Source of the DNA: an uncultured virus (IMG/VR IMGVR_UViG_3300009551_000011)
Lineage: Duplodnaviria > Heunggongvirae > Uroviricota > Caudoviricetes
Direction: 5' to 3' (one strand)
Length of the DNA: 64,000 bases
Virus record (IMG/VR): IMGVR_UViG_3300009551_000011
Shown here piece after piece: positions 5,629 through 58,912 of this stretch (its first letter is position 1; each line of letters starts with the position of its first letter). Under the pieces are notes generated by a model. That model ran no database searches and had not been told where the DNA came from. It saw nothing but the letters and a program-made list of their open reading frames with translations. The translations under genes and the position numbers were made by a program.

Positions 5629-7719
5629 ATGAATCAACTTCGTCTGATAGGTCCATTCACACCGAACACTGGCTACGCGAAAATGACGCGGGCTGTTCTC
5701 CACTGCGCGGTACTCGCTGGCTACGAAGTCCAGGCTATCGAATCCGATCTCCGCAAGGTCTCCAAGCACTATATTGACGGGCGGGTGGTCGAAGAGTTCA
5801 AGCCGTACGAGCGCAATCTTCCTCTTCCTGAATTCCAGCAGAAGGAGTTGGATGAGGCGTTTGCCACGGTGGTAGACGCAGACGCGCCGACCCTCATGAT
5901 TCAACTGCCCGGCAACTTCTCCGATCCCCGATGGAGGGAGTTCGCGAACGGTCCAATGCTAGGTTGGACCATGACCGAATCGGATAACCTCTGCCCTTAT
6001 TGGCAATTCGGGATCCGTCACCTTGATATGGTCATTGCCCCGACATCCTACGTGCGCGACACCTTCCAGCGAGTACTTCCCGATGTGACCTCTACCCGCT
6101 TGCCAATCCCTGTTGATGAGCGTCTATGGTCACCGGATGAGTACCGCGAGCAGATATCCAATGAGCGCCCGCCCTTCCTGTTCTACTCCATGTTCACCAT
6201 GCAGGAGCGTAAGCAGTGGCGTGTGATGATGCAGGCGTTTGCCGAGGAGTTTTGCAAGGAAAGCGACAAAGTCGGGCTCGTCGTGAAACCCACCAACGGT
6301 GGGCCTGTCGCTGAGATGGCCGGGTGGTGCCGGGAAATGGGCGCATGGGTAGTTGTGGACCACGAGGAGCGCACCGACTGGACGCTCGGCGCCATGTACC
6401 GCGCGTGCGATGTTTACGTTCAAGTAGCAAGCGAGGGCCAAGGCCTCACCTACATCGAAGCCGGTCTTTGCGGTAAGCCATCAATCGCCCTCGACAAGAG
6501 CGGCTCGGTAGACGTTGTCAGCGACCTGAACGGATACCTTGTTCCGAGCCAAATGAAACCGCTTATCGGACACATGCCGATGTGGTATCCGCGGACTCAC
6601 AACTTCGCCCAGTGCGATATTGACGACCTGCGCCTAGTGATGCGCCAGGCTTACGAGCGCGAATCTTCGGGTAATCGGAAGGGCGGTGCGGCGTTGATGT
6701 CGGCGCGCGAGTTTACTTGTGAGGCGATTGCTCCTCAACTAAGAAGAACCATTGAGCGCGGGGCTGAGGCGCACGAACACCGGAAGATGTATCCTTCCGC
6801 GACAAAACCGAGTACGGCCGTGGTGGCCGGGGCGTGGGGCGATGTCTTTTGCGCATGTGGCAAGGTCGTCGAAATGCTCAATTCATACAGCATGGACGAG
6901 ATCGACATCATCTACTACGGACGTGATCCGAAGATCACAGATTGGCTCGGAAGGCAGACGTGGTGCCGCAAAGTCATTCCGATGATCGAATCTAGTGTCG
7001 ATGAAATGACGAAGCAGTACGCCATGGCTTGCCAGGTTCGAGCGTACCACTCTCGCGAATGGCTAAGCGACATGCTCGACAAATACGGTCACCATGTCGG
7101 ATTCGCTGGACCTACCGATGTGGCGCTCACTCAGCTTCGCCTTAACGAGTTTGAGCAGCCGAAGTTTTGGAAGAACCCGCGTCTATCGCCTGACGCTCGC
7201 CTATGGGCTCATGAAGTCGCAGCCGAGGTTGGCAGTCCGTTCTACGTCCTCAATCCCTTGTCCATAGCCTCTAACAAAATGCGCGATCATTGGCGATTCT
7301 GGAATGACGCCATCGTCTGGCTGCTGGATGATGCAAGGTGTGGCAATGCGGTCTTCGTGCTGGTTGGTGAGAAGCCGATTGATTGGCCCGACCACCCGCG
7401 ACTTCGGAACTATGCCGGCCAATCCAAAAGCATGGAAGACGTGCTGGCGCTGGCCGAAGAATCGCTCGGTGTCATCACAACATCGAACAACCTCGGAATC
7501 TATACGCCGCTGGCTGAGATTCCAGCGGTAGTGGTCTGTGCCAGGACTTGCGGACCCGAGACGTTTTATCATCGCTGGTACACCAACGATGATACGTACC
7601 TGGTCGAATGGTTGGACGCGATGAACCAATTTACAGATGCGTGTGAGGCGTTGTTTTCGAGGTGCGTGACATCTTCACATCATGGAAGAGAGACCGCAGA
7701 AATGGCGGTAGCAACATGA
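5629..7719 (+). CDS. two-domain glycosyltransferase (GT4-like N-terminus, GT9/heptosyltransferase-like C-terminus)
   Basis: TGYA N-terminal motif; EX7E motif EGQGLTYIE; second domain has GAWGDV and AG.SKSMEDVLAL...IPAVVV. Confidence 0.8.
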   Translation: MNQLRLIGPFTPNTGYAKMTRAVLHCAVLAGYEVQAIESDLRKVSKHYIDGRVVEEFKPYERNLPLPEFQQKELDEAFATVVDADAPTLMIQLPGNFSDPRWREFANGPMLGWTMTESDNLCPYWQFGIRHLDMVIAPTSYVRDTFQRVLPDVTSTRLPIPVDERLWSPDEYREQISNERPPFLFYSMFTMQERKQWRVMMQAFAEEFCKESDKVGLVVKPTNGGPVAEMAGWCREMGAWVVVDHEERTDWTLGAMYRACDVYVQVASEGQGLTYIEAGLCGKPSIALDKSGSVDVVSDLNGYLVPSQMKPLIGHMPMWYPRTHNFAQCDIDDLRLVMRQAYERESSGNRKGGAALMSAREFTCEAIAPQLRRTIERGAEAHEHRKMYPSATKPSTAVVAGAWGDVFCACGKVVEMLNSYSMDEIDIIYYGRDPKITDWLGRQTWCRKVIPMIESSVDEMTKQYAMACQVRAYHSREWLSDMLDKYGHHVGFAGPTDVALTQLRLNEFEQPKFWKNPRLSPDARLWAHEVAAEVGSPFYVLNPLSIASNKMRDHWRFWNDAIVWLLDDARCGNAVFVLVGEKPIDWPDHPRLRNYAGQSKSMEDVLALAEESLGVITTSNNLGIYTPLAEIPAVVVCARTCGPETFYHRWYTNDDTYLVEWLDAMNQFTDACEALFSRCVTSSHHGRETAEMAVAT

Positions 7720-9169: not shown

Positions 9170-12091
9170 ATGGCAAACCCAATCGACCTCGGAACCTTAT
9201 ACGCCAGCATCGAAGTCCGCACCTCTAAATTAGAGCAAAGTGCTAAGCAATCTGTCGGCATCTTCGAGAAAATGTCGGTGGACATTGGCCGCATTTCCGA
9301 GACATTGAACAAGAAACTTGAATTGCAGCAGTCTCAGGCAGTGGCATCGGCAGGTCGCCGGTCCGCTGCTGAATTATCTGCTCGCCAGCGACAATTCGAC
9401 GATTTTGCCAAAACAGCAGGCCGAAGTATGCAGGTAGCGGGTGCTGCAATATCGGTTCCTCTAGGCATTGCAATAAATAAGGCCGCCGAGTTTGATCAGT
9501 CCATGAGAAACACGAACTCATTACTGAAATTAAACGAAGCCGGTTTCCAGGATCTTAAAAAGTCGGTAATGGGCGTTGTCGATGATCCAAAGATTCGGCA
9601 AGGGCCAATCGACCTTGCAAAGGGAATGTACGACATCGCCTCATCCGGGTTTACAGGACAGAAGGCCCTCGATATCCTGCGTCAGTCCGCCTATGGCGCG
9701 TCAGCTGGCATGACGGACACGGCTACCAGTTCACGGGCATTAATGGCGGTTTTGAACTCTGGGATCGGGGGAGTGAAAGACGCACGGGAGGCCATGGACG
9801 TGCTCTTCAGAGCCGTAGACCGTGGTGTTTTCTCATTCTCGGATTTAGCAAACAACATCGGCGATGTTCTCCCGACAGCCAAGATCATGAAGGTCAACAT
9901 CCAGGAGATTACAGCCGCCTACGCTGTCATGACCAAGCAGGGATTGAATGTAGCGGAGGCCCAAACGGCCCTAAATAACCTCTTGATTCATGTGGCCAAA
10001 CCGTCCAAAGAAGCTAAGGAGTTAATGGATGAACTTGGTATTTCATATGGCGTTACTGCCATGGAAGGTAAAGGGCTTTCCGGCTGGCTCCAAGAGGTTA
10101 TAGACAAAACCCACGGCAATACGCAAGCCATGATCAAACTTATGCCTGAAATGCGAGGCATGAAGGGTGAACTCCTGCTTGCTGGTGACGGGCTTAAATC
10201 GTACCGTGAGGAATTAGCTGCAGCATCGACCGCAACAGACGGATTGGGGGCAACTCAGGCAGCGTTAACCGAGCAAAACAAAGGTGCCCAGGCGCAGTTC
10301 GAGATGCTCAAAAAAGAGATTGAAAAGCTGAGCATAGATATCGGAAATAAATTACTGCCTGCCTTTAGGGACGTATTGACGCATGTTAAGAGCGCAGTAG
10401 AAAGATTTGACGATTTACCGGATAGCATCAAGGGGGCAACAGTTGAACTTGCTGCATTCGGCGCAGTAGCCCTGACCGTAGGGGGCTCCATTCTCACATT
10501 GATTGTGAGACTGAAAGAACTGGCAGCGCTTCCAATAGCTGGAAGATTGCTAGGTATCGGTGGTGGAGCAACAGCGGTTATTGCTACTGGCAAAATGATT
10601 TACGATATGGCGAGTGACCCTACAAGCCCGTCCGTGCAGGGGTTTGGAGCTCTTGGAGGTAGTGCAGGTGGTCAGGGCTATTATGCGTTACAGGAGAAAC
10701 TAAAAAAGCAGTACATCCTAGACGATATCATAAGAAGCGGTTCGGGGGATATGGCCGAACAACGCATGCTTAGAGATCGCGTTGCGCCTGCTGCTGTAGG
10801 AGCAGTGCGGCCTATTAAAAAAACGCCTGCTCCCATAGACCAAGATGCCATAGACGAAGCGCGTAACAAGGCAAAGGACATCGCTACCGCCAACCGCGAA
10901 GCCGCAATCGAAGCCCTTCGGCTGTCAGAAGACGCCAACAAGAAACGCACCGCCGCCGAGATGGCCGCCGCAGACGAATACAAGCGGATGATTAATGAGA
11001 GCGGGGTCGAGCAAGTCACCGCGTTCAAAGTCTACCAGGCCAAAATGCAGGAGGCTTACAAAGAGTGGCATGATACCGTTGTTGCCGCTGGGGTGAAAGC
11101 TTACGAGGCCGAGACTGAAGCCATTGAGAAGGCGACAAAAGCACGAGACGACGCGGCAAATGCCATCACCGACCCTGACGAGTTCAAGAAACAAATCGAG
11201 GCCAATGCTCCCGCAATGCTCGCGGATGCGTTCAGGATAATTACTGAAGAAACTCAGCGCCAAGCTTTTGAGGAGTTCGACAAAACCCAAGCATTTAACG
11301 AGGTCGGACGGCAATACGCAGACCACATCCTTGAAGGCCTGCAGGCAGTGCTTGATAACATCCCATTGGAAGACTTGCCACCGGTTTATGACACCATTGA
11401 CGCATTGCTGAAAAAGGGCGTGGACGCAATCGGGTACGCCAAGGCTGGTAATCAAGTCGACTCAATGAAGCCGGTGAAAGACAAGATCAACTACACGAAA
11501 GAGCTTTTAAAGGGGCTGCAGCGGGATGCATCCCAGGTATTCGCCGGATTGTTTGAAGACCTCTTAAACGGCAGCAAGAACCCGTTTGATAGCTTTGCAA
11601 AAGCCTTCAAGAACATGCTGATTCGGATGACGGCCGAATTGGCCGCGTCTAAGCTCATGGAGATGATGAACGGGTTAGTATCCGGCAGAGGCGGAAAGAT
11701 GCCATGGGATGAGAAAATGCCTGGCATATCAGGCGGTGGTGGTGGCATTGGCGGAACGCTAGGCGGCTTAATAGGCGCATCCGCAGGCGGACCGCTCGGA
11801 GGGCTGATAGGCGGAGCCCTTGGCGGCATCCTCGGCTTCGCTGACGGCGGCCGCCCACCCGTCGGCCGCTTCTCGCTCGTCGGCGAGCGAGGCCCGGAGC
11901 TCGTCAAGTTTGACCGACCGGCGACTGTCTACCCGAATGGGGTTATGCCTACTGGTGTTGATAGTTTGGGTGGCGGACAACACTTCCACGGCGATATTCA
12001 CGTCCACGGTGTGCAGAATGTGGCTGAGCTATGGCGGCAGTTAGGCGAGCACGGTCGGCGGATGGATCGATTCCGAAGGGGTAGCGGCTAA
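9170..12091 (+). CDS. tail tape measure protein (TP901-type core)
   Basis: 973 aa, Ala-rich and helical; EFDQSMRN...IASSG core; C-terminal FADGGRPP..SLVGERGPEL motif. Confidence 0.93.
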   Translation: MANPIDLGTLYASIEVRTSKLEQSAKQSVGIFEKMSVDIGRISETLNKKLELQQSQAVASAGRRSAAELSARQRQFDDFAKTAGRSMQVAGAAISVPLGIAINKAAEFDQSMRNTNSLLKLNEAGFQDLKKSVMGVVDDPKIRQGPIDLAKGMYDIASSGFTGQKALDILRQSAYGASAGMTDTATSSRALMAVLNSGIGGVKDAREAMDVLFRAVDRGVFSFSDLANNIGDVLPTAKIMKVNIQEITAAYAVMTKQGLNVAEAQTALNNLLIHVAKPSKEAKELMDELGISYGVTAMEGKGLSGWLQEVIDKTHGNTQAMIKLMPEMRGMKGELLLAGDGLKSYREELAAASTATDGLGATQAALTEQNKGAQAQFEMLKKEIEKLSIDIGNKLLPAFRDVLTHVKSAVERFDDLPDSIKGATVELAAFGAVALTVGGSILTLIVRLKELAALPIAGRLLGIGGGATAVIATGKMIYDMASDPTSPSVQGFGALGGSAGGQGYYALQEKLKKQYILDDIIRSGSGDMAEQRMLRDRVAPAAVGAVRPIKKTPAPIDQDAIDEARNKAKDIATANREAAIEALRLSEDANKKRTAAEMAAADEYKRMINESGVEQVTAFKVYQAKMQEAYKEWHDTVVAAGVKAYEAETEAIEKATKARDDAANAITDPDEFKKQIEANAPAMLADAFRIITEETQRQAFEEFDKTQAFNEVGRQYADHILEGLQAVLDNIPLEDLPPVYDTIDALLKKGVDAIGYAKAGNQVDSMKPVKDKINYTKELLKGLQRDASQVFAGLFEDLLNGSKNPFDSFAKAFKNMLIRMTAELAASKLMEMMNGLVSGRGGKMPWDEKMPGISGGGGGIGGTLGGLIGASAGGPLGGLIGGALGGILGFADGGRPPVGRFSLVGERGPELVKFDRPATVYPNGVMPTGVDSLGGGQHFHGDIHVHGVQNVAELWRQLGEHGRRMDRFRRGSG

Positions 12092-18141: not shown

Positions 18142-18675
18142 ATGAACCCAGCCTTCCGACTCCAACTCCTTGCCGTCGCACAGCACTACGCGAGCGCCGG
18201 CGTCAAGGAGCATGGCGGCAACAATCGCGGTCCGGAGGTTGAACACTTCCTCAGGGTGGTAGACGTTCCGCCGGGTGAGCCGTGGTGCGCTGCAGCGGTT
18301 GTTACGTGGGCATGTGAAGCCTATCTGAAATCAGAAGGCGATTCAACACCGACGGCTGCCGACTTCAAAGGCGCGAAGGTTTGGTTGGGGCTGAACTACT
18401 TCATTCCCTCACCCGCCGTCGCTGCCATTGAAGCCAATGCGAAGAGGCGGGGGATATTCAAGCCTAAGACGTGGACGCCTACGCCGGGCAGTCTGGTGAT
18501 TTACCACTTCCCAACGGGGAATCACATTGGGGTGGTTGACCAGATGGTGGGTAAGACTCTCCACACCATCGAGGGAAACACCGGCAACGGCTCAGACCGA
18601 GACGGTGACGGCGTTTTTCGCAAGAAGCGGGATTTGACGTATGTTGCCGGGTTTGTAGACCTCGGCAATCAGTAG
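18142..18675 (+). CDS. CHAP-domain endolysin
   Basis: NNRGPEV, PWCAA, HIGVV and TIEGNT motifs. Confidence 0.88.
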   Translation: MNPAFRLQLLAVAQHYASAGVKEHGGNNRGPEVEHFLRVVDVPPGEPWCAAAVVTWACEAYLKSEGDSTPTAADFKGAKVWLGLNYFIPSPAVAAIEANAKRRGIFKPKTWTPTPGSLVIYHFPTGNHIGVVDQMVGKTLHTIEGNTGNGSDRDGDGVFRKKRDLTYVAGFVDLGNQ

Positions 18676-20956: not shown

Positions 20957-21798
20957 TGCCATTACAGCGGCCCCTACTTATCCCGAAGAATGCGATTTTG
21001 CACCCGGAGTTTTGTGATCGCTTTGGGCGGCCGGTTCTGGCTTTTCATTCGCAGTCCGGAGCAATCGCGCCAGCTGGCGGAGGGGTTGTGTTCAACCGGG
21101 GCGCTTCTGGCGGGCGGGGTGCAGCGCATACAGATTACACATTCGACCGCGGCGGCATCCGTAAGGCGTCTGCAACTACAAGCGCTGTGGATTTCGGGAG
21201 ATCGAAGCAATGGGAAGACGGTGGCGCAGTTACCATTTGGGCGCACCATATGCCGACGAACTTTGCCGGATTCCCGACTCCCCTTAGCTGCTGTGCTTCC
21301 GGCGCTTTGAATGGATGGGAACTCGGAATCAATTCTTCGGGCAATGCTCGCCTGTTCTGCTCGAGCGGAACGAGCGCGTCAATCGTTTCTACTGCATCCC
21401 TATCTACCAACCAGATTATTACCCAGATGGGAGTAGTGCTGCCGGGTGTCGCATGGGGTGGGCTTTACATTAACGGAGTGCTTCAGACTGTGACAGGTTC
21501 GGCGACTCCGAACAGTCCGACATATGCTACTTCGTTGAAGATCGCCAATAGGGCCGGTACCAACTTCGGCAATCTCATCGTGTGGCAGGCGCTTGTTTGG
21601 AATAAAGTGCAGTCTCAGCAGTTAGCCGTCCTGCTGGATAGGGATCCGGACCTCATGTGGTGGTGGCCAGGCAAAGAGGCGAACAGAACGATATTCCTAC
21701 CGGGTGCGGCAGCAGGAAGCGGAGCAGGCCCGCTAATAGGGCCAGGCAGGCTAATCGTTGGAGGCATTCATAATTCCGGAAGGTTGGTTAGATGTTAG
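20956..21798 (+). CDS. LamG-like domain protein
   Basis: NGWELG, LYINGV, LKIANR and C-terminal DP..MW pattern. Confidence 0.65.
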   Translation: MPLQRPLLIPKNAILHPEFCDRFGRPVLAFHSQSGAIAPAGGGVVFNRGASGGRGAAHTDYTFDRGGIRKASATTSAVDFGRSKQWEDGGAVTIWAHHMPTNFAGFPTPLSCCASGALNGWELGINSSGNARLFCSSGTSASIVSTASLSTNQIITQMGVVLPGVAWGGLYINGVLQTVTGSATPNSPTYATSLKIANRAGTNFGNLIVWQALVWNKVQSQQLAVLLDRDPDLMWWWPGKEANRTIFLPGAAAGSGAGPLIGPGRLIVGGIHNSGRLVRC

Positions 21799-23171
21799 CA
21801 CTTGGCAACGTCCATCCCGGCAGCACTCTATATATTCCCTTCGAAACCTTCGCGGGCGCAACCGGCGCGCCGATCACCATGACCGGCTTTGCGGTGGGCG
21901 ACATCAAGATATATAAGGACGGCTCAACCACCGAACGCGCCTCCACCTCCGGCTTCACCCTTCTGGATACAGACGGGACCGATTTTGACGGCATCACAGG
22001 CATTCAAGGATTCTCGATCGACCTGAGCGACAACACGACCGCCGACTTTTACAAATGCGGATCCAAATATTTCGTTGTAATCTCGACCGTGACTGTAGAC
22101 GGCCAAACGATGAGCTTCATCGCGGCTCACTTCCGGATCGCCTACGAGAACGCGTTTCTTTCCACGTTTATAGCCACCCTGAGCAGTCAGACCTCATTCA
22201 CACTAAGCGCAGGACCTGCTGAGGACAACGCGCTTAAGGGAATGCAGGTAATCGTTCAGAATGCCGCTTCCGGCGTCCAGAAGTCGATGTGCGTCATATC
22301 GGCGTATACCGGCAGCACAAAGACTGTGACGCTTGCGGCAGGAGCTACGTTTACCGCGGCGGTTGGCGATAATATTTCGGTATTGAATCTTGCTCCACTG
22401 CAACCGGTTACACCAGGTCGTACCGTTGTAGTGGACGCTAACGGGGTCGCTGATGCAAACCTGATTCGAATCCTTGGAACACTTCTAACTGAAACCGCTG
22501 GCCAATTAGCAGCCGGTTTTAAGAAGTTCTTTAATGTTACGGCGCCTACTGCACAAGCCGACAATCTACCATTGAATACTGACTATACTTCTGCTCGAGC
22601 TACGAAGATCGACTTCCTGACAGGAGACGCATACGCAAGAATCGGAGCAGCAGGTGCCGGACTTACCGCGTTGGGAGACACTCGAATCGCGAATCTGGAT
22701 GCGGCAGTATCAACAAGGCTAGCTAGCGCGTCCTACACCGCGCCTCCAACCGCTGCACAGAATCGCGCCGAAATGGATGCCAATTCCACGAAGCTTGCAA
22801 ATCTAGATGCCACCGTCTCATCTAGGTTGGCCTCTGGCTCATATACGGCACCGCCTTCTGCCGCGGCTAACCGTGCGGAAATGGATTCGAACTCTACCCA
22901 GTTGGCAAAAATTGGAACGCCAGCCGGCGCATCACTCGCAGCAGATATTGCAGGAGTTCCGACCGCATTGCTTGACCTTGCTAACGGCGTTGAAACCGGC
23001 TTAACACTCCGCCAGGCCATGCGCCTGATTGCAGCTGCAGAGGCCGGACAGATAAGCGGAGCGGCAACAACAACCATTGTAATCAAGGCGGCCGGCGTTC
23101 CCGGTACGACCAGAATCACGGCTACCGTTGACGCGGACGGGAATCGCTCGTCACTTACCTTGAATCCATAA
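21792..23171 (+). CDS. putative fibre/virion protein with internal repeats
   Basis: Ala/Thr-rich; 36-aa tandem repeat; C-terminal LTLRQAMRL...RITATVDADGNRS. Confidence 0.65.
   Translation: MLALGNVHPGSTLYIPFETFAGATGAPITMTGFAVGDIKIYKDGSTTERASTSGFTLLDTDGTDFDGITGIQGFSIDLSDNTTADFYKCGSKYFVVISTVTVDGQTMSFIAAHFRIAYENAFLSTFIATLSSQTSFTLSAGPAEDNALKGMQVIVQNAASGVQKSMCVISAYTGSTKTVTLAAGATFTAAVGDNISVLNLAPLQPVTPGRTVVVDANGVADANLIRILGTLLTETAGQLAAGFKKFFNVTAPTAQADNLPLNTDYTSARATKIDFLTGDAYARIGAAGAGLTALGDTRIANLDAAVSTRLASASYTAPPTAAQNRAEMDANSTKLANLDATVSSRLASGSYTAPPSAAANRAEMDSNSTQLAKIGTPAGASLAADIAGVPTALLDLANGVETGLTLRQAMRLIAAAEAGQISGAATTTIVIKAAGVPGTTRITATVDADGNRSSLTLNP
22692..22907 (+). repeat. 108-bp (36-aa) tandem repeat, 2 copies
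   Basis: NLDAAVSTRLASASYTAPPTAAQNRAEMDANSTKLA followed by NLDATVSSRLASGSYTAPPSAAANRAEMDSNSTQLA. Confidence 0.85.
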
Positions 23172-24271: not shown

Positions 24272-24694
24272 ATGCTTAACAGAATCATCCTCGTCGGGCG
24301 TGTGGACCAAAAGTACGGACTGACGTACAACAAAGGCGGCATTCCCAGAGTAGAGTTTCCGCTGACTTTTGAGAAGCTCGAAAAGCCAGCGGATGACAAC
24401 GAGTATATCGTGAGCTTTATTGATGTGAAGCTTGTACGGCAGCCAGCAGTATTCTTTGACAAATACGTGAAGCAGTTAGCCCTGGTTATGGTTGAAGGCA
24501 GGCTGCAAGTCAAACGGTATACCCGGCGGGATGGGGGCAAAGGAATCTACTACTCCATCATTGGCAGCAATATTGAGATTATTGACAACGTCGGACCCTG
24601 GGAACATCTACGGAAGACTGATACCGGCAGGCAATATGATTATGATGACGTTGATCCCTTCGCTGATGAGCCGGGAGGCGGGAATCCAGGCTGA
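24272..24694 (+). CDS. ssb: divergent single-stranded DNA-binding protein
   Basis: MLNRIILVGR, VMVEGRLQ..Y..RDG and acidic DPF tail. Confidence 0.75.
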   Translation: MLNRIILVGRVDQKYGLTYNKGGIPRVEFPLTFEKLEKPADDNEYIVSFIDVKLVRQPAVFFDKYVKQLALVMVEGRLQVKRYTRRDGGKGIYYSIIGSNIEIIDNVGPWEHLRKTDTGRQYDYDDVDPFADEPGGGNPG

Positions 24695-24761: not shown

Positions 24762-25022
24762 TCAAGCTTTACGAAGCAGTAAGGGTATCACGCGGGACTC
24801 TACGAACTCGCGGACTCGCGCCTCTTTTTCGTCCTCATCATTTACCATCACAATGCCGCCAGCCTCCTGGTAGAGTGCGCCGATCTCGTCTGAGGTAACG
24901 ATCTTGCCGCCGTCCTGTGTCTCATCTACGAAGGCGCTCCATCCGACCAACATATCTAAGAGGTGAGAGGTGGGGGATTCTCCCCTCACCTCCTCTTCAA
25001 TTTTCTTCTCTTCTGTCTTCAT
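24762..25022 (-). CDS. acidic protein coupled to HicA, putative antitoxin
   Basis: ATGA overlap with hicA; acidic; no clear canonical HicB motif. Confidence 0.5.
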   Translation of the reverse strand: MKTEEKKIEEEVRGESPTSHLLDMLVGWSAFVDETQDGGKIVTSDEIGALYQEAGGIVMVNDEDEKEARVREFVESRVIPLLLRKA

Positions 25023-25207
25023 GGCTTACCCCATCCTGCTTCTCGGTAGATACTTCTGAGTGTTCCGGGCTTGATGTCTCCGTGGTGTCTAGGGACTATC
25101 ACCCTGCCCGGCCTCTCCGGGTGCGTATAAACATCGTGCGGTCCGTCTTGTCGGGCTAACTCCCATCCGTCGGCGGTTAGAAGTTTCTTGAGTTCTCGAA
25201 CCTTCAT
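25019..25207 (-). CDS. hicA: HicA-family toxin (mRNA interferase)
   Basis: L..DGW...RQ.G.H..Y.HP...G.V.VP.H..DI..GTL.SI...AG signature. Confidence 0.9.
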   Translation of the reverse strand: MKVRELKKLLTADGWELARQDGPHDVYTHPERPGRVIVPRHHGDIKPGTLRSIYREAGWGKP

Positions 25208-26223: not shown

Positions 26224-26257
26224 CCACCGATACAACGCCACCTTTATTCCAGGCAAC

Positions 26258-26284
26258 AAAAAGGGCCGGGGATTAACCCGGCCC
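26258..26284 (-). terminator. intrinsic terminator
   Basis: minus strand GGGCCGGG-TTAATC-CCCGGCCC-TTTTT. Confidence 0.8.
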
Positions 26285-26351
26285 TCTCTGCTTTCGCGAT
26301 CAGGAATAAATCCCTCTCGCTGTCTCGTGCCCTTAGAGGGCTATGGTTAGG

Positions 26352-26430
26352 TGAATCCGGATGGGTTCGAGCCATCTCCTCCTAGCGGTTTTTACACTGC
26401 TAGGCGTTCCCCGTTTGTCACTTCGGACTC
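26352..26430 (-). other. tRNA-like element (non-canonical)
   Basis: 7-bp acceptor GAGTCCG/CGGATTC plus A; T-arm GATGG-CTCGAAC-CCATC; extended anticodon-like arm CCTAGC/GCTAGG; poor D-arm; no CCA. Confidence 0.55.
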
Positions 26431-26589
26431 ATGTTGCAGAACTCTTACGCGGTCCTGCGTACGGCTTGGATGTACGCCGATTTATTCCATCCCAAGCGAG
26501 GGTATCTATCCCTGCCGCGCCTTGCTCTACGTCGTCACGTAAAGCGTAATTCCGGCCGCATTCTCTACCGGCACCGTCTATACAGGCAA

Positions 26590-26618
26590 ATAATACTAAA
26601 TCCCCGCAATCCTGTCAA
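26590..26618 (-). promoter_or_regulatory. sigma70-type promoter
   Basis: minus strand TTGACA, 17-nt spacer, TATTAT. Confidence 0.8.
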
Positions 26619-26694
26619 GTAGACACAGCAAAGCCCGCTGACGGGGCATCTCGCCAACGGGCTTCACTTTCCTTCGTTCAACCAGATTATACCG

Positions 26695-26856
26695 CTAAAT
26701 GGTCATCGGTCGCAGGAGTTTGCCGACGTCCACTACCTGAGCCTTCCGCAACTCCATAGACATCTTCGCGGCCATTTGTGCGCCTTCCTGAACGGCTTGC
26801 TGTCCTTCGGGTGATTTGACCCAGTCCTGCGCTGCTTTGGCTAAATCTTTGTCCAT
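26695..26856 (-). CDS. small leaderless hypothetical protein
   Basis: TATAAT 6 nt before the ATG. Confidence 0.5.
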   Translation of the reverse strand: MDKDLAKAAQDWVKSPEGQQAVQEGAQMAAKMSMELRKAQVVDVGKLLRPMTI

Positions 26857-26863
26857 AACTCGA

Positions 26864-27028
26864 TTATACTGTCGCAATATCGTCGTTCATCACATGCGGA
26901 AAACACAGCTTGAACTGCTTGACTAGTTCATCCCCATCACACCCGTTCTCCTGAAGAATACTCAGTAAGAGTTTTGGCGATAACACTTCAAGCATGCCGA
27001 GCGGTTTTAGTTTTTGACCCTTTTTCAT
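26864..27028 (-). CDS. small leaderless hypothetical protein
   Basis: TATAAT 6 nt before the ATG. Confidence 0.45.
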   Translation of the reverse strand: MKKGQKLKPLGMLEVLSPKLLLSILQENGCDGDELVKQFKLCFPHVMNDDIATV

Positions 27029-27116
27029 GCCCCGATTATACCGTAAACTGGAAAAACGCCTTTTTCCTGATTCCGCCTCCGCCAACCTCCCGCGAGTAGA
27101 ACCACAGGAGGGCAAC

Positions 27117-27375: not shown

Positions 27376-28371
27376 TCAAGCCCGCGTTCGCTTCTTCTGC
27401 GCCTCCACCGGGCTATATAGGCGGTGTTGCACCTCAATGTCCGCCTGGGCGAAGGCGACGTATCTCTGCGTCATTTGCAGGTTCGTGTGACCGAGGAGCA
27501 TTTGAAGAGAAAAGACGTTGCCGCCTGCGCGTAGGAACTCCACGGCGAATGTGTGCCGGTAGCGGTGCGGATGCGCATTGTCGACGCTGGCACGCTCGCC
27601 CCATCGGACGACGAGTTGCAGAAGGCCGCTGCGGGTAAACGGGCCGCGCTCCCCCATAAACAGCATATCCTCAGTCGTCCGGCCTTCTGATCGGACATAG
27701 TCGAGGATCGCCTTTGTTGTCGTCTTGTGGAACGGCAGCGAGCGGGTTTTACCCCCTTTCCCCAAAACCATCACCCTCTTGCCCAAAATGTTCAGGTCCT
27801 TGTAAGGCAATCCGCAAAGCTCAGTCGCCCTCAAGCCAGTATCCAACATAAGGTAGTGCATCGCTACATCTCGCTTTGGGTAGTTGCCGGCTTTGGCCGC
27901 CTTCAGGAGCTTGTCGCATTCTTCAGCGGTGTACGGCCGAATCTGATCGGCCCTGGCGATGGGCGCCGCGATCCGATCCATTGGTGAGACCGACAGAATC
28001 CCCTCTTCGATGCACCAGTTGAAGAAACTGCGAAGGTGTCCGTGAACGGTGTGGACAGTGCGAGGGCGCACAGCCTTTGTGCATTGAGGATTCCCCCAGC
28101 GCCCACCTTCTTCTTCATGGCCATGGGTCAGGTAATGGAGGTAGCCGCGCAGCGCCGTACGGTCAATGACCTGGATGTTCTTCTTCTTCAGGAACCAATC
28201 CAGCTTATTGAGGATATCCCGGCGGCGTTCTATGGTGCGGGAGGAGTGTTGTTCGATGTCGCAGGAGAGATGCCAGCCTTCCGCAGTTTGCTCTAATTCT
28301 GAAGTGGCGAGCAATTCGGAGGCGTCTGGCGCGCTTGACAAAATCTTCAAACGCGGAGCTGAGTTGAGCAT
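27376..28371 (-). CDS. int: tyrosine integrase
   Basis: DTGLRATE (R), GKGGK (K), HRYRH (HxxR), LLGH and TQRY (Y) motifs. Confidence 0.95.
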   Translation of the reverse strand: MLNSAPRLKILSSAPDASELLATSELEQTAEGWHLSCDIEQHSSRTIERRRDILNKLDWFLKKKNIQVIDRTALRGYLHYLTHGHEEEGGRWGNPQCTKAVRPRTVHTVHGHLRSFFNWCIEEGILSVSPMDRIAAPIARADQIRPYTAEECDKLLKAAKAGNYPKRDVAMHYLMLDTGLRATELCGLPYKDLNILGKRVMVLGKGGKTRSLPFHKTTTKAILDYVRSEGRTTEDMLFMGERGPFTRSGLLQLVVRWGERASVDNAHPHRYRHTFAVEFLRAGGNVFSLQMLLGHTNLQMTQRYVAFAQADIEVQHRLYSPVEAQKKRTRA

Positions 28372-28590
28372 TTTGGTCCCTTTTCTTGGCAGAGAATCGG
28401 GACCGCAACCTAAAACGCGGAAGTCAATTTGAGCGTGAAACTTGATTTTTGTATGGAGCTGAGGGGATTCGAACCCCTGACCTCCGCGATGCGAACAAGG
28501 ATTTTGAATCCGTGCTCGAATCGATCACATTCACGCTCAAATGACTTTGCTGAACGGTCCCATTTTTGATTAACGCGGAGCTTAGTTGAG
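28350..28590. repeat. direct and inverted repeats flanking the att core (arm-type sites)
   Basis: AACGCGGAGCT(G/T)AGTTGAG at 28350 and 28572; AAGTCA(A)TTTGAGCGTGAA at 28421 and its inverse at 28530-28547. Confidence 0.75.
28454..28496 (-). other. attP core: 3' 43 nt of tRNA-Ala(CGC)
   Basis: GTTCGCAT-CGCGG-AGGTC-AGGGG-TTCGAAT-CCCCT-CAGCTCC-A; U70 Ala determinant; 5' half absent; adjacent to int. Confidence 0.88.
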
Positions 28591-28607
28591 GTGGCTGGTT
28601 TTTGGAC

Positions 28608-30530: not shown

Positions 30531-31200
30531 CGCCAACTCCTGGCCTCGGCACAAACTTGCTCGCCTTCCGCTTCTTTATCTCTTCGGCAGCCTCATCCAG
30601 CGATTCGGCGGTCTTCGCGTCGGGCTCGCCTTTGTACGCGGCCAAGTGTTCGTAATCTTCCTCTTGCTTATCCGGATCGAAAGTGATTCCGCGGATCGGA
30701 CGCTTGTTGCCGGGGTTCTGGCCGCCTTCCACTACGCGCAGAGGCGCCTTTCCTTGATTGCGGCTCGACTTGATCTGAATCAAGAGTCCGATTTCCTCCT
30801 GATCGTCTTCTGGCAGAGACTCGAACTGCTCGACCCACCTGCGAAAATGGGGGCTTACCGGAGCATCTTCGTCATTGAGAACATGCGAACTCTCTTCAGT
30901 CCAGATAGGCTCTTTAATTGAATAGGGGGTTTGAGCATAAATCGATCTCAGCAACTCCCTGTCATGGTCAAAGGCTAAGTTGAGGTTCAACCCTGTGATG
31001 TACTTTTCAACCGTCCTTACAGACGGAATCGGAGGCAACCCGTTGGAGCGCTTTGGCTCGTCAGCCTCGGCCCTGGACCATTGGCTGGCTTGCACTCCAG
31101 CCGCCTCCGCGCAAGCTACTACGCTTAACCGTTTGGATTCTCTCGCTCTTCTGAGGGCTTCCCCAAACGTCATGATGTGATTCCTTATGAGTGTTTGCAT
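30520..31200 (-). CDS. CI-like XRE repressor
   Basis: FGEALRRARE..LS...AEAAGV..SQWSRAE HTH; divergent from the cro-like gene. Confidence 0.8.
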   Translation of the reverse strand: MQTLIRNHIMTFGEALRRARESKRLSVVACAEAAGVQASQWSRAEADEPKRSNGLPPIPSVRTVEKYITGLNLNLAFDHDRELLRSIYAQTPYSIKEPIWTEESSHVLNDEDAPVSPHFRRWVEQFESLPEDDQEEIGLLIQIKSSRNQGKAPLRVVEGGQNPGNKRPIRGITFDPDKQEEDYEHLAAYKGEPDAKTAESLDEAAEEIKKRKASKFVPRPGVGDEK

Positions 31201-31222
31201 AGTCGAATATCACTACGGTTCA

Positions 31223-31642
31223 TAACAGAAATGTTACTGTGATTTAACACACAAAGCAAGATATGAATTCGTAACAATAATTAACACGTTTGTATTGATT
31301 TTCCGTAGCAAACATGTTACTATTTGGCATGAGCACACAAACCGAAACCCTATCAAACGGCGCAACACCGCAAGGCTCGCACCCCAACGGGATACGCGGG
31401 ATGCGCTTGCTGTTCGGCTACTCAATAGCTGAACTTGCCAGACACGTCGAACTAAAAGCCTCTGCAATCTCCCGATGTGAGGCACGAGGGATCGGAATTG
31501 GCCCCCGCAACTGGAAAAAGCTGGCCGATCACTTTGGTGTCGAAACGTGGGAACTGCACGATCCTAACCTCGCAGAAAAAAAATCGCATCAATTTGTCGA
31601 AAATCGTAACAAATCTGTTGCAATTCCATAACAAACGTGTTA
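31223..31642. promoter_or_regulatory. operator set TAACA-N4-TGTTA overlapping two rightward promoters
   Basis: copies at 31223, 31282, 31306, 31607 and 31629; promoters TTGATT-17-TACTAT (31295-31323) and TTGCAA-17-TATCAT (31618-31646). Confidence 0.75.
31329..31631 (+). CDS. Cro-like XRE regulator (leaderless)
   Basis: IR.MR...GYSIAELA....SAISRCE..KLADHFGV; ATG 5 nt after the -10 box. Confidence 0.75.
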   Translation: MSTQTETLSNGATPQGSHPNGIRGMRLLFGYSIAELARHVELKASAISRCEARGIGIGPRNWKKLADHFGVETWELHDPNLAEKKSHQFVENRNKSVAIP

Positions 31643-51129: not shown

Positions 51130-51726
51130 ATGTCAGCACATCGTGCTTCTAATTCATTAACAACCAGGCAGGAAAAGGCGGCCGCCCTACTCGCTGTTGA
51201 TAGCATTTCAGATGTCGAAATCGCTGCCAAATGTGGGATTACGGATCGGTCACTCAACCGATGGAAATCTAACCCGCAATTCGCCGCTCGCGTTCAAAAG
51301 TTACGCGATGAAGCCGCCGAGCGCATCAGGGAAGAGGTCATAACTACTGGCATAGCCGACCGGGTAAACCGCGTCAAGCGCCTGAACGATGACTGGATCC
51401 GAATGCAGCAGGTAATCAAAGAGCGCGGCGAATCGGCTGAGATGGAGGAGATACCTGGCGGTCAAACCGGCCTCCTGGTTCGCCAAATCAAGGGTATTGG
51501 CAAGGGTGAAGATTTCCAGATTGTTGAGATGTACGCCGTTGATGCCGCTCTACTCTCCCAGTTAACTGCACATGAGGCGGCGGCGGCTAAGGAACTCGGA
51601 CAAACCATTGACCGCCACGAGATAGATGTCAGAGATACAACTGCTGCAGACTCGCTTGACCGCAAACTGGCTGGCCTCGCTGCCCGAATCGGAGCGCCTC
51701 CAGTTCCTAGCGAGCCTGAGCCATGA
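51130..51726 (+). CDS. terS: terminase small subunit
   Basis: N-terminal HTH (EIAAKCGITDRSLNRWK..PQF); AAKELGQ; directly upstream of terL. Confidence 0.75.
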   Translation: MSAHRASNSLTTRQEKAAALLAVDSISDVEIAAKCGITDRSLNRWKSNPQFAARVQKLRDEAAERIREEVITTGIADRVNRVKRLNDDWIRMQQVIKERGESAEMEEIPGGQTGLLVRQIKGIGKGEDFQIVEMYAVDAALLSQLTAHEAAAAKELGQTIDRHEIDVRDTTAADSLDRKLAGLAARIGAPPVPSEPEP

Positions 51727-52972
51727 GGAGCGGGAAGAGCTCTTCTACAAGTGGAGTTTCTGGGCCCGAGACGCACAAATCAGTCCGCCAGGCGATTGGC
51801 GCTGCTGGCTCATCCTTGCAGGCAGAGGATTCGGTAAGACGCGGATTGGCGCCGAAGTCGTAAGGGCTATAGCTGAGACCGGCGAGGTTGGACGAATTGG
51901 TCTAATCGGGCAGACTGCGGCCGACGTGCGCGACGTTATGGTTGAAGGAGAGAGCGGGATACTCGAAATCTCTCCTCCATGGTTCAGGCCGAAGTACGAG
52001 CCATCAAAGCGCCGCCTGACATGGCCGAACGGAGTCAAGGCGACAACCTTCTCAGGTGATGAGCCCGACCAGCTCCGCGGACCGCAGCATGGCTTAGTCT
52101 GGGCAGATGAGCCGGCCAAATGGAAGTACCCGGATGACGCATGGTCCAACATGGAATTCGGTCTGCGTACCGGAGATCATCCGAGGGTAGTGGCAACAAC
52201 CACGCCCAGGCCGATAAAGCTGATCCGTGAACTGGTGAATGACCCGACGACACACGTCACACGCGGTTCGACCTATGACAATTACGGCAACCTTGCTCCA
52301 TCGTTCATTCAAAAGGTTCTCACCCGTTACGAGGGCACGAGACTCGGCAGGCAGGAGCTTCTAGCCGAAATCCTTGACGACAATCCGGGCGCATTGTGGC
52401 AGCGCTCTATGATAGACGCGCTCCGGGTTAAGACCGCTCCGGACCTATTCAGAATTGTTGTTGCTGTTGACCCGATGGTGGCCGATGTGAATACCGCCGC
52501 CAATCTCGAGGATGAAGGCTCAGCCTGCGGGATCGTGGTGTTTGGCGTGACGGAAGGCCCAGACGGGCACGGGTATGTGCTTGAAGACAAGACGGTCTTC
52601 GGTTCACCGAACGAATGGGCGGCTACCGCGGTCAACGCCTATCTTGAGCATAAGGCGGATCGGATAGTCGCAGAAACAAATCAGGGCGGCGCGATGGTCG
52701 ATTTCACCATTCGGACGGTTGCCCGCGATATGGGCGTAAGGGTTTCGTACCGGGGTGTCCATGCATCCAGAGGCAAGTATGTACGAGCTGAGCCAGTCGC
52801 CGCTCTGTACGAGCAGAAGAGGGTTCATCACGTAGGCAGCATGCCCGACCTCGAGGATGAGCTTTGTAATTGGGAACCTGGACAACCTTCACCTAACCGG
52901 TTGGATGCCCTTGTATGGGGAGCGACCGACACGATGGTTGAGAACGTGAAGCGACAGGCACGGACGGCTTAA
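51626..52972 (+). CDS. terL: terminase large subunit
   Basis: AGRGFGKTR Walker A; VWADE Walker B; TTTP; VAVDP; NRLDALVW. Confidence 0.95.
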   Translation: MSEIQLLQTRLTANWLASLPESERLQFLASLSHEEREELFYKWSFWARDAQISPPGDWRCWLILAGRGFGKTRIGAEVVRAIAETGEVGRIGLIGQTAADVRDVMVEGESGILEISPPWFRPKYEPSKRRLTWPNGVKATTFSGDEPDQLRGPQHGLVWADEPAKWKYPDDAWSNMEFGLRTGDHPRVVATTTPRPIKLIRELVNDPTTHVTRGSTYDNYGNLAPSFIQKVLTRYEGTRLGRQELLAEILDDNPGALWQRSMIDALRVKTAPDLFRIVVAVDPMVADVNTAANLEDEGSACGIVVFGVTEGPDGHGYVLEDKTVFGSPNEWAATAVNAYLEHKADRIVAETNQGGAMVDFTIRTVARDMGVRVSYRGVHASRGKYVRAEPVAALYEQKRVHHVGSMPDLEDELCNWEPGQPSPNRLDALVWGATDTMVENVKRQARTA

Positions 52973-53213: not shown

Positions 53214-53744
53214 ATGAGCGAAACCGCAGCCGCCCGCGAAACCCTCGCTCCGTACTGCTCCGAGCCCATCGGTATCGACTTTGGATTCGGCGGCGACAAA
53301 ATCGTTCCTCACGCATGGGCGTTCGATATGTCGCAAGCTTACACATCGGTCGGAGGTGACAGGCAGCAGGTGATTGCCTACGCTGATCGCCCTCTTCAGT
53401 TTCTTGCCGATGGCGCGATGGATTGGATTTACTCCTCTCATCTTCTCGAAGATTTCCACTACTTTGAACTCTCTTCCGTGCTTCGTGAATGGCGGCGTGT
53501 CCTAAAGTCCGGCGGATTGCTCGTCACCAATTGCCCAGACCAACAGAAATTCGTCGCACACTGCACGGCACACATGGAACGCACCGGCCAGGATATCCGC
53601 AACCTGGCCCACAAGGAAGCCGATTTCAGCCTTGAGACGTTCCGCGCGGTCCTAAACCAGACGGGTGCATGGGAAGAGGTCTTTGTGCAACCGGAGGCGG
53701 GGGCGTACAGTTGGTATTTGGTTGTCCGAAAGGTTGGAGCATGA
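53214..53744 (+). CDS. class I SAM methyltransferase (Methyltransf_11-like)
   Basis: IDFGFGG, IYSSHLLED and EWRRVLKSGG motifs. Confidence 0.8.
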   Translation: MSETAAARETLAPYCSEPIGIDFGFGGDKIVPHAWAFDMSQAYTSVGGDRQQVIAYADRPLQFLADGAMDWIYSSHLLEDFHYFELSSVLREWRRVLKSGGLLVTNCPDQQKFVAHCTAHMERTGQDIRNLAHKEADFSLETFRAVLNQTGAWEEVFVQPEAGAYSWYLVVRKVGA

Positions 53745-54079
53745 CAAGCGCGCCTCAGTTCACATTGCCGCCCTTGACCCTTGACGGACTCCTTGATGTC
53801 ATGAAGCAGATTAGGACGCCTCCGCCTCTACCAAAACTGTTCGCTGGCGATCCGTGCGACAAGGTATTGGATGCCTTAGGCGTCCATAAAGTACCCGGCC
53901 CGTTCGAGCGATGGGCTTCAAATCACTACGAGATGGCTATCGTCACGGATCCATTCATGCCTGCCAACACTATACGGTTCGAGCATCCAGACGGGCGCAT
54001 CGATGTACTTGTCTTACAGGAGGATGGCTCCGTCGCTAACATCCCGGTTCCCTCTAGCCCGTTTACGGAGGTCAAATGA
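53741..54079 (+). CDS. hypothetical protein
   Basis: ATGA-coupled at both ends. Confidence 0.55.
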   Translation: MTSAPQFTLPPLTLDGLLDVMKQIRTPPPLPKLFAGDPCDKVLDALGVHKVPGPFERWASNHYEMAIVTDPFMPANTIRFEHPDGRIDVLVLQEDGSVANIPVPSSPFTEVK

Positions 54080-54795
54080 ACGCCCAAGTAGTCACGGTCT
54101 CGTCCCATGTTCCCACGCAAAGCTACTACCGCCCGGACGCTTACCTTGCGTCCCTTCATCGATTCGCAGAGGTGCCTACAATCCTCGGCGCCGGCGAAAC
54201 ATGGAGCGGTCTAATGACAAAGCCCTTCCTGCTCCGCGATTGGCTGCGCAAGGGCAACAACACGAGCGACCGGATCATCTTCACCGATGCGTGGGACATC
54301 CTCTTCCTCGCCCATCCTCACGGCATTGGAGACCGCTGTATTGAGTGGTTCGGTGCCGATGTGATCGTCTTCAATGGCGAGCGCAACATATGGCCGCGTG
54401 GTGACCTCAAAGAGCAGTTCCCGGACACCGGCCCATGGCGCTACCTCAACAGCGGGTTCATGTGCGGCAGCGCTGAGAACATCCTCAAACTGCTGGAGTC
54501 GATGGATCTCGAGAGTATCGGAGTGGACCGCACCAATCCAGACGGCAGCAAGACGGAGCCTAACGATCAGGCCTACTTCCAGGAAGCCTACACAAAGCAA
54601 GTAGTACCGATGGTGGTCGATGGCTCCTGCAAACTAGCGATGACCTTCTCCGCTACAGGTGACGAGGATTTCGATTTGCGCGACCGGGTTCTCACCAACA
54701 AGCTAACCGGCACCACTCCGGGCGTGGCTCACTTCAACGGGTCGGGTATGAACGACCACTTTCACAAGTTCCTTGCACATTGGGAGTTACCATGA
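54076..54795 (+). CDS. PLOD/LH3-type GT-A glycosyltransferase domain protein
   Basis: IIFTDAWD, VFNGERNIWP, RYLNSGF..G, DQ.YF and HFNG motifs. Confidence 0.8.
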   Translation: MNAQVVTVSSHVPTQSYYRPDAYLASLHRFAEVPTILGAGETWSGLMTKPFLLRDWLRKGNNTSDRIIFTDAWDILFLAHPHGIGDRCIEWFGADVIVFNGERNIWPRGDLKEQFPDTGPWRYLNSGFMCGSAENILKLLESMDLESIGVDRTNPDGSKTEPNDQAYFQEAYTKQVVPMVVDGSCKLAMTFSATGDEDFDLRDRVLTNKLTGTTPGVAHFNGSGMNDHFHKFLAHWELP

Positions 54796-55028
54796 ACAGA
54801 CGACAGGCGATTCAAGCGATAGGCGGCGGAACCTTAGCGGTCGCGATGGCGGGCAAGATAGACGCTAAAACTGTAGGTAGTGGCGACGTTGTTCTTATCA
54901 CTACACGAGAAGGGTCCACCTGCTCAATTGAAGATATTCGGGACGACATCATCAAGGCACTTCCGCAGTTGGCCGGGCGAGTGGTAATTCTCGACGGTTT
55001 TGACGTTACAGTGGTGTCTGCGAAATGA
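54792..55028 (+). CDS. small protein with twin-Arg-like N-terminus
   Basis: MNRRQAIQ followed by a hydrophobic stretch. Confidence 0.5.
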   Translation: MNRRQAIQAIGGGTLAVAMAGKIDAKTVGSGDVVLITTREGSTCSIEDIRDDIIKALPQLAGRVVILDGFDVTVVSAK

Positions 55029-55035
55029 GGACCGC

Positions 55036-58692: not shown

Positions 58693-58702
58693 GTGGTAAG
58701 TT

Positions 58703-58912
58703 GTGGAAATGGTTCCTCACAGCGACATAGCCATACGGTCAAACAAATCGGAATTCCGTATTCCAATGATCGTGTTTATGCGGCTGGATGAAGAGACGTT
58801 GAACGATTTTTGGGCTAAGGTGTTCGCCGAAGCAAAGCGCGAAGGATACCAGACGGTACATCGTACGAGGGATGTTGCGGCCATGGAGTACGTTTTCACG
58901 TTCGTGCGGTAA
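58703..58912 (+). CDS. hypothetical protein
   Basis: ORF in operon. Confidence 0.45.
   Translation: MEMVPHSDIAIRSNKSEFRIPMIVFMRLDEETLNDFWAKVFAEAKREGYQTVHRTRDVAAMEYVFTFVR

Follow-up and report, generated by a model that had tools for sequence, protein, structure and literature searches.

The window analysed here is a stretch of 64,000 nucleotides (nt) from an uncultured virus of the Caudoviricetes (IMG/VR record IMGVR_UViG_3300009551_000011). Its minus strand carries, between positions 26258 and 26618, an autonomous non-coding transcription unit that is confirmed as a real gene. The RNA contains a conserved, pseudoknotted 5′ domain, a module shaped like a transfer RNA (tRNA) and a trailer that leads into an intrinsic terminator. 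It is unclassified and a member of no tested RNA family. With somewhat less than even confidence, the tRNA-shaped module is read as a punctuation handle for RNase P which would release the conserved 5′ RNA. All positions are plus-strand coordinates of the window.

Promoter, terminator and coding potential

The predicted start of the transcript lies near 26583, downstream of a sigma-70-type promoter of the form TTGACA-17-TATTAT (26590-26618, minus strand; a match of 11/12). Three sites with this score occur in the whole window on both strands, against a mean of 0.4 in 30 Markov shuffles. The unit is closed by an intrinsic terminator (26256-26291, minus strand), which forms 15 pairs in the fold and has its stem at 26262-26285, followed by a T-run. 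From promoter to terminator the span is about 328 nt on the minus strand. A preliminary description of the locus, made from the sequence alone, had proposed this promoter and a clean terminator around ~325 nt lacking a long sense open reading frame (ORF), and this is borne out.

The remaining two 11/12 matches are found at positions 271 and 50944 on the plus strand, each with the form TTGACA-17-TATACT. The first is located before ORF 356-1636, which opens the head module and has no assigned family, and the second before the small terminase gene.

There is no credible sense ORF of at least 40 amino acids (aa) within the unit. The sole minus-strand case (26375-26244, 43 aa) has an ATG inside the T-arm of the module, 2 nt past an AGGAGG run, and a stop beyond the T-run of the terminator, so the terminated transcript would be a non-stop message. 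This ORF is probably not translated. A type I toxin or other small protein was ruled out on the same two features, namely a Shine-Dalgarno sequence just 2 nt from the ATG and a stop that lies past the terminator. Control of the promoter by cI was also ruled out, as the RNA promoter and the cI-cro operator region have no 7-mer in common. For this reason, expression of the RNA in the lysogen would be plausible.

Fold of the RNA

The whole transcript folds at -137 kcal/mol (z -6.70), and none of 100 shuffled sequences is equally stable. Removal of the terminator leaves a z-score of -4.52, with 0 of 200 shuffles as stable, while the opposite strand gives z -2.47.

The conserved 5′ domain (26433-26583, minus strand) is a series of hairpins with a pseudoknot, and is retained in two environmental contigs described below (X2 and X4). 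It begins with a weak hairpin at 26576-26553, followed by a 9-bp hairpin that includes one G-U pair (26545-26537 / 26532-26524) and a GGG/CCC hairpin at 26512-26500. The H-type pseudoknot (26496-26457) is formed by the stems 26496-88 / 26472-65, with one bulged G, and 26477-73 / 26461-57. A further hairpin (26458-26452 / 26442-26436) completes the domain, and the 6-nt loop at 26450-45 is complementary to 26549-44. A 6-mer pairing, 26500-495 / 26321-316, is also present in the sequence on this strand.

The 3′ trailer (26286-26349, minus strand) contains a hairpin at 26341-26329 and then the segment 26321-26295, which pairs with 26519-26495 of the 5′ domain through 23 pairs in the minimum-energy fold. 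Within this helix, 26514-05 / 26310-01 has a pairing probability of about 1.0 in the nested ensemble. The helix as a whole is marginal, as 26-28 of 500 shuffles pair equally well.

The pairings listed in the preliminary description (the 9-bp hairpin, the 26458-26436 hairpin, the complement of the 6-nt loop, the pseudoknot and the 6-mer) were all found in the sequence. Two others stood in part. The perfect 10-nt complement between 26488-79 and 26312-03 exists, but the nested ensemble gives it a probability of 0.0, as 26514-26505 takes over the pairing with its 3′ strand. Among 200 shuffles, 12 contain a perfect helix of at least 10 nt; the 10-mer is thus not significant alone and is weak as a tie within a scaffold. 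The hairpin described as GAAA-capped is likewise real, but consists of only 2-3 pairs.

The tRNA-shaped module

The module (26350-26431, minus strand) has an acceptor stem and a T-arm, a D-like region without a stem, and a long hairpin in place of the anticodon arm. The acceptor is 7 bp in length (26430-24 / 26359-53), with pair probabilities of 0.90-0.94 and G3-U70 as the third pair. The T-arm is 5 bp (26376-72 / 26364-60; probabilities 0.77-0.79) and carries the 7-nt loop CTCGAAC, which retains T55, C56, G57 and A58 and has C at position 54. The U at -1 is 26431, and A73 is followed by CC (26352-26350). The D-like region is unpaired and contains GGGG with no partner for a D-stem. At the anticodon position there is a hairpin of 6+2 pairs with a 6-nt loop (26404-26381), predicted with a probability of 0.99-1.0.

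Measured against a tRNA, the module possesses the 7-bp acceptor stacked on a 5-bp T-arm with a 7-nt T-loop, and lacks the D-stem and the 5-bp anticodon stem with a 7-nt loop. It cannot decode and would make a poor bait for anticodon nucleases, as the D region is stemless and 6+2 pairs around a 6-nt loop stand in for the anticodon arm. The pairings and their probabilities agree with the preliminary view of a tRNA mimic with a good acceptor and T-arm, an aberrant D-arm and an over-long anticodon arm. Its remark that CCA is absent was correct; ACC is present at the corresponding end.

The two strands of the window (128 kb) together contain a single acceptor-on-T-arm minihelix with an NTCRANN loop, compared with a mean of 0.075 over 40 shuffled windows. 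The motif is beyond chance.

Tests against known RNA families

ARAGORN found 0 tRNA genes and 0 transfer-messenger RNA (tmRNA) genes in the window. At thresholds of 70-80% the only tRNA calls were unrelated or intron-spanning, and at thresholds cut to 60-80% the tmRNA calls were mutually contradictory, with 'tag not identified'. Rfam 15 gave 0 matches for the whole window at the gathering score. At an expectation value (E) of up to 10, the 1-kb surroundings of the gene returned terminator-like noise only, and the 176-nt 5′ domain alone returned nothing. The 111-nt tRNA-shaped part alone gave three chance-level matches to unrelated families (E 2.7-9.5), none of them to a tRNA, tmRNA or tRNA-like model. 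The models for GOLLD, ROOL and other large ornate RNAs do not match the RNA gene. Signatures of tmRNA, RNase P and group I/II introns had been reported missing in the preliminary description, and the Rfam results agree. It had also named a full-length Rfam match as the outcome that would remove the novelty of the RNA, and no such match exists.

The Rfam models do work on this DNA, because a true 3′ fragment of tmRNA in the same window is recognized at E 6.7e-07. This fragment (28451-28600, minus strand) matches RF00023 with 20.9 bits, is cut at its 5′ side and covers model positions 210-374. It has a canonical T-arm and acceptor strand, and is located upstream of the integrase, on the opposite side from the RNA gene. 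It likely represents the core of the phage attachment site (attP). The phage would therefore integrate into ssrA, as Rfam identifies the attP piece as the 3′ end of the tmRNA gene. An assignment of the fragment to the 3′ half of a tRNA-Leu was ruled out by the same match. The RNA itself was ruled out as attP or as a remnant of a host RNA, as the att fragment is on the other side of the integrase. From this position it follows that the RNA gene is of the moron type.

An attP with the ssrA 3′ end invites the explanation that the RNA resembles tmRNA, in divergent or rearranged form, and that the phage carrying it disrupts ssrA when it integrates. The pseudoknot, the G3-U70 pair and A73 of the module, and a 51-codon open frame without a start codon that ends in TGA at 26432-26430 are in keeping with it. 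Against this stand the blank default result and contradictory low-threshold calls of ARAGORN, and the failure of the Rfam tmRNA models, standard and permuted, to match the RNA gene. In a tmRNA, the tRNA-like domain is formed from the two ends of the RNA around a tag frame; here the module is internal and self-closed, and no frame was found with a typical tag ending or the usual alanine-rich tail. Phages that integrate into ssrA also normally restore its 3′ end, as this attP would. The explanation is largely refuted by these membership tests and is regarded as highly improbable.

Other classes of small RNA gave no better agreement. The features of C4 antisense RNA are lacking: there is no Rfam match, no downstream operon on the same strand and no significant complementary stretch in the rest of the phage. 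A search of the phage for antisense targets found none, with a best match of 13 nt (E 0.25), and an antisense regulator of a phage gene was ruled out on this ground. ORFs of the window were scanned against PHROGs and Pfam in batches of 20, 16, 50 and 30, for 96 ORFs. None of these 96 belonged to an SmpB, Ro60, RtcB or CCA-enzyme family. For YrlA, there is no Rfam match, and TROVE/Ro60 and RtcB families were not found among the ORFs scanned, a set that does not exhaustively cover small ORFs or all six frames. A retron is not indicated either, as no reverse transcriptase family is present among the ORFs scanned with PHROGs and Pfam.

Relatives and modular conservation

Besides the probable source run, relatives were found as short contigs at a depth of 3-4 in four sequencing runs (X2-X5); stretches that these contigs do not cover were left uninterpreted. 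The 600-nt contig of X2 (soil) matches 26435-26601 with 13 differences in 167 nt, and also the terminator (26251-26285) with 1 difference. Between these two blocks it has 241 other letters where the window has 149, and the part replaced includes the trailer. The 162-nt contig of X4, from soil in another study, matches 26433-26561 with 2 differences in 129 nt and is then unlike the window. The 5′ domain is thus kept at 92-98% identity in both contigs, and both diverge 2-4 nt before G26430, the +1 position of the module. Retention of the 5′ domain, a break near +1 of the module and retention of the terminator indicate that the RNA is modular.

The contig of X3 (soil) shares only 26594-26669, at 100% identity, with unlike flanks on both sides. 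This block of 76 nt comprises the upstream hairpin together with the -35 box and spacer of the RNA promoter. The hairpin (26631-26664, minus strand) closes the upstream small-ORF operon and adjoins the RNA promoter, with an outer stem of 7 bp (26664-58 / 26637-31) and a T-rich tail. Since the block is identical between unlike flanks, the same promoter cassette would drive a different transcript in X3. The X5 contig (wastewater) retains the upstream small ORF and hairpin (26623-26800, 15 differences in 178 nt) and becomes unlike just before the RNA promoter, so the neighbouring ORF is not tied to the RNA gene. As read from these contigs, the locus appears to be a chain of exchangeable blocks: hairpin with promoter, 5′ domain, tRNA-shaped module with trailer, and terminator.

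Of the 13 differences in X2, five are listed. In the RNA sense, A26490>G and U26470>C convert an A-U pair to G-C in a pseudoknot stem, in both possible registers. C26500>U keeps its pair as G-U, and U26504>C falls in a loop. The fifth, G26475>A, has its partner in the unlisted end zone. The segment 26505-26566 is unchanged. On these five of 13 differences, in single contigs of low depth, the pattern would be that expected of a structured RNA.

Sharp mosaic joints of this kind, which also occur at 26594, 26623 and 26669 in other runs, could alternatively belong to something other than an RNA gene. The candidates are a small protein on the plus strand (26431-26622, 63 aa) or an element acting as DNA, such as a recombination linker or a protein-binding site. 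The plus-strand ORF is nearly equal to the block kept in X2 and X4 plus the promoter. Its ATG has no preceding Shine-Dalgarno sequence, however, and its product is a basic low-complexity peptide with no homologue among 5.8 billion clustered proteins (34-111 aa range). Three of the five listed differences in X2 are non-synonymous in its frame. The promoter and terminator are both on the minus strand, which is also the strand that folds better. Such an origin is considered very improbable.

The 30 letters known of the X4 contig beyond the break begin, in the RNA sense, with two U, a 7-nt G-rich acceptor-like strand and AA. A 4-bp stem then closes a 7-nt loop containing GG, and is followed by one G and CCU. 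This looks like the layout of the 5′ half of a regular tRNA, in the same register as the module of the window.

The continuation raises the question of whether a phage tRNA gene is present behind a conserved structured leader, its tRNA having decayed here to a non-decoding, functionless relic. The 4-bp D-stem and GG loop of X4, set against the aberrant D and anticodon arms of the window, would fit such a history, and phage tRNA genes are often found in moron positions. The full pairing of acceptor and T-arm, and the predicted pairing between trailer and 5′ domain, are not what free decay would be expected to leave. A leader that is better conserved than its tRNA would also be unusual, and with 30 letters the identity of the X4 continuation as a tRNA is that of a candidate. 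On balance, decay is held to be unlikely.

No further relative was recovered. Neither the phage records (50,697) nor the E. coli records (20,395) gave a blastn match to the 411-nt locus, and a search of the phage records with only the 5′ domain, at E up to 5, was equally blank. Exact-word scans of IMG/VR with five pieces of the RNA and the X4 continuation returned nothing beyond one record, which is the same phage at 100% identity and is therefore not independent. A 22-mer of the T-arm and acceptor had a single match among 185,579 species genomes, a chance occurrence inside a coding region of a Bryobacteraceae metagenome-assembled genome. Two 20-mers gave 0 and 30 matches in metagenome contigs, all 30 being chance matches of 20-23 nt in coding DNA. 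With nhmmer and blastn, none of 10 integrase relatives and 80 tail-fibre relatives was found to have the RNA. It was also not found in 401 sampled Acidobacteriota genomes, a blank that is uninformative as the host of the phage is not identified. Relatives have so far been seen only as short contigs in two soil studies, and the RNA is an orphan.

Role of the tRNA-shaped module

The punctuation reading proposes the following course. A strong housekeeping promoter would direct a primary transcript of ~328 nt, ended by the intrinsic terminator and composed of three modules: the pseudoknotted conserved 5′ domain (~150 nt), the exchangeable tRNA-shaped module, and the trailer with the terminator. 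Host RNase P would cut between 26431 and 26430. The cut would give the ~150-nt 5′ RNA a defined 3′ end and free it as the putative working molecule. The trailer, predicted to be paired with the 5′ domain, may remain attached, or a nuclease specific for double strands may cleave it.

This course is favoured because the module retains what RNase P needs, and because conservation upstream ends at the junction in two relatives, one of which apparently has a more regular tRNA. The predicted substrate features are the 7+5 stacked pairs, a 5′ leader, U at -1 and A-C-C at 26352-26350. McClain, Guerrier-Takada and Altman reportedly found in 1987 that a minihelix of acceptor and T-stem with a 3′ CCA-type end suffices as a substrate of RNase P.

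The preliminary description had seen the RNA as a compact scaffold displaying a tRNA module, and had suggested two roles, a signal for RNase P or RNase Z and a decoy for anticodon nucleases. An autonomous, ornate and unclassified non-coding RNA with a tRNA-shaped module is indeed present, but the breaks in X2 and X4 make the module an exchangeable part and not a fixed core. The processing signal would be the better fit of the two roles, in view of the 12-bp minihelix, U-1, ACC and the end of conservation at the junction. The decoy fits poorly, given the 6+2-pair arm with its 6-nt loop and the fact that no tRNA model scores the module.

Several observations weigh against punctuation by RNase P. 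With the predicted pair between U26431 and A26352 the acceptor would be 8 bp long, and cleavage by RNase P could be displaced or made weaker. The 5′ domain alone is not better than shuffled sequences in a nested model (z -1.79; 8/200 shuffles equally stable). The compensatory change in the pseudoknot is single, and comes from one contig at a depth of 3.3, where it could be an error. Evidence of covariation is confined to the 5′ domain, as the relatives are fragments without a full-length module or trailer. Mosaic recombination in temperate phages can by itself yield sharp breaks in identity, so that a break is not necessarily a sign of function. Its higher conservation could also mean that the 5′ domain is a carrier, and that specificity resides in the variable module. 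Among the six sequencing runs holding words of the stretch, none is listed as RNA.

A carrier role of the 5′ domain is the basis of an alternative which is viewed as doubtful. The 5′ domain would serve the tRNA-shaped module as a carrier or platform for expression, and the module, as the effector, would act as a mimic of tRNA after processing and addition of a terminal A. In one version, the minihelix with G3-U70 and A73 would be chargeable by alanyl-tRNA synthetase and would act as a sink resembling the tRNA-like domain of tmRNA. In the other, it would be a decoy for host factors or defences that recognize the elbow and acceptor of tRNA, and exchange of the module would change the specificity. 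The G-T third pair of the acceptor, the A discriminator and the CC that follows are consistent with mimicry. Francklyn and Schimmel are said to have found in 1989 that G3-U70 in a minihelix is enough for alanylation. A constant 5′ domain with a variable tRNA-shaped part is the pattern expected of a scaffold with a specificity module, and both the integration of the phage into ssrA and the position of the gene among morons (HicA, membrane ORFs) would suit a mimic. A G-U pair at one given position of a helix is, however, a weak signal. Position 54 of the T-loop is a C, and the module, even alone and at E up to 10, matches no Rfam tRNA, tmRNA or tRNA-like model. The hairpin that replaces the anticodon arm argues against a decoy for anticodon nucleases, and the families of SmpB, Ro60, RtcB and CCA-enzyme are missing from the 96 ORFs scanned.

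A broader and more speculative proposal, thought quite unlikely, is that the locus belongs to an undescribed modular RNA family of soil temperate phages. A pseudoknotted 5′ scaffold with a fixed promoter and terminator would here carry interchangeable tRNA-shaped cargos, as RNA cassettes for tRNA mimicry. The cargo of the window could then be an alanine-accepting minihelix similar to the tRNA-like domain of tmRNA, in a phage that integrates into ssrA. Cargos could equally be decoys for host defences that recognize the acceptor and elbow of tRNA.

Genomic context of the RNA gene

The window is the 64-kb, circularly permuted genome of a temperate soil siphophage. Its structural and lysis genes include those of the major head protein (1605-2924), tape measure (9170-12091) and endolysin (18142-18675), and a tail-fibre-like gene (21792-23171). 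The best phage matches of the major capsid protein, which are actinophage proteins, share about 30% identity with it. A tyrosine integrase is encoded at 27376-28371 on the minus strand (PHROG phrog_1 at 1.1e-43; Pfam Phage_integrase at 4e-32), and apart from the phage itself none of its relatives in IMG/VR exceeds 34% identity. A divergent pair of cI-like and cro-like genes is located around 31200-31314, followed by recombination, helicase and methylase genes, by TerS/TerL (51130-52972) and by the portal gene (62219-63625). Judged on the integrase and capsid sequences, the phage is novel and far from anything described.

No host was identified, and comparison of the SSB protein was without a useful result. 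Atlas clusters for TerL are mostly from Pseudomonadota. Across 401 Acidobacteriota genomes, the ssrA 3′ piece reached at best 91% identity over 43 nt, from which no claim is drawn.

The moron zone holds SSB (24272-24694), HicA on the minus strand (25019-25207; Pfam 4.3e-20) and two hydrophobic ORFs on the plus strand, which extend to 26223. Once the phage is integrated, the RNA gene would lie some 1.8 kb inward of the integrase end, with these morons around it. HicA and an 86-aa ORF (24762-25022), which is overlapped by the end of the HicA ORF, form a possible toxin-antitoxin moron (24762-25207, minus strand) about 1 kb from the RNA gene.

Between the integrase and the RNA gene, a motif with the minus-strand sequence GGTATAATC (or CAGTATAATC) is directly repeated at 26682-26702, 26849-26872 and 27021-27051. 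The three copies are spaced 172-177 nt apart and look like -10 boxes right before small ORFs, which would allow for leaderless transcripts; alternatively, they could be protein-binding repeats.

Between TerL and the portal (53214-61668, plus strand) there are several methyltransferases, a PLOD-type glycosyltransferase and a B12-binding radical SAM enzyme (57202-58692). This block may be a cassette for the modification of DNA or of the virion. An additional glycosyltransferase-like ORF (5629-7719) is found in the head-tail module.

Comparison with known systems

To our knowledge, the structured phage RNAs that are linked to tRNAs (GOLLD, ROOL and the stable RNAs of T4) are a long-standing puzzle, and none has an assigned function. 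The present locus is small (~330 nt), has separable parts and has natural variants that exchange the middle part only, which makes it tractable for deciding between punctuation and mimicry. Should the 5′ domain be the effector, it would represent a new class of pseudoknotted RNA from uncultured soil phages.

A preprint describes GOLLD and ROOL as encoded by phages or prophages, ornate with pseudoknots and linked to tRNAs, and GOLLD as having one conserved and one less conserved half (bioRxiv 10.1101/2024.12.08.627333). The context of the RNA resembles that of these tRNA-linked ornate phage RNAs. It differs in length (~328 nt vs >500-800 nt for GOLLD and ROOL) and has no family match. In addition, its tRNA-shaped part is non-canonical and placed between a conserved 5′ domain and a terminator.

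The rnaC and rnaD of T4 are small, stable, structured RNAs at the tRNA cluster, and are transcribed and processed with the tRNAs. They are comparable as small structured phage RNAs with a link to tRNAs. T4, however, is virulent and has a multi-tRNA operon with no sequence relation to this locus, which carries a single non-canonical module in a moron of a temperate phage.

The tRNA-like domain of tmRNA shares with the module G3-U70, A73, the T-arm, a D-region without a stem and the absence of a decoding anticodon arm, and pseudoknots occur in the same transcript. The module is nevertheless self-closed and does not join the ends of the RNA, there is no tag frame, and both ARAGORN and Rfam are negative.

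The C4 RNA of P1 and P7 and the CI RNA of P4 are small RNAs of temperate phages, which were reportedly found by Hartmann et al. in 1995 and Forti et al. in 1995 to be cut from precursors by RNase P. By analogy, the RNA would likewise be a temperate-phage non-coding RNA with a tRNA-like fold for RNase P, and with complementarity to other parts of its own transcript. It differs in that it has no family match and controls no downstream operon, as its own terminator closes the unit, facing convergent genes.

In the t-elements of plant mitochondria and in MALAT1-mascRNA, non-decoding tRNA-shaped structures set the end of a neighbouring RNA through RNase P or RNase Z. The module would resemble these as a tRNA-shaped, non-decoding structure beside another RNA, presumably with similar processing. 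They are eukaryotic or organellar, and Rfam models of the mascRNA type do not match. Taken by analogy, the unit would work most like tRNA-like punctuation processed by RNase P, as in the precursors of P1 C4 and P4 CI, the t-elements and MALAT1-mascRNA.

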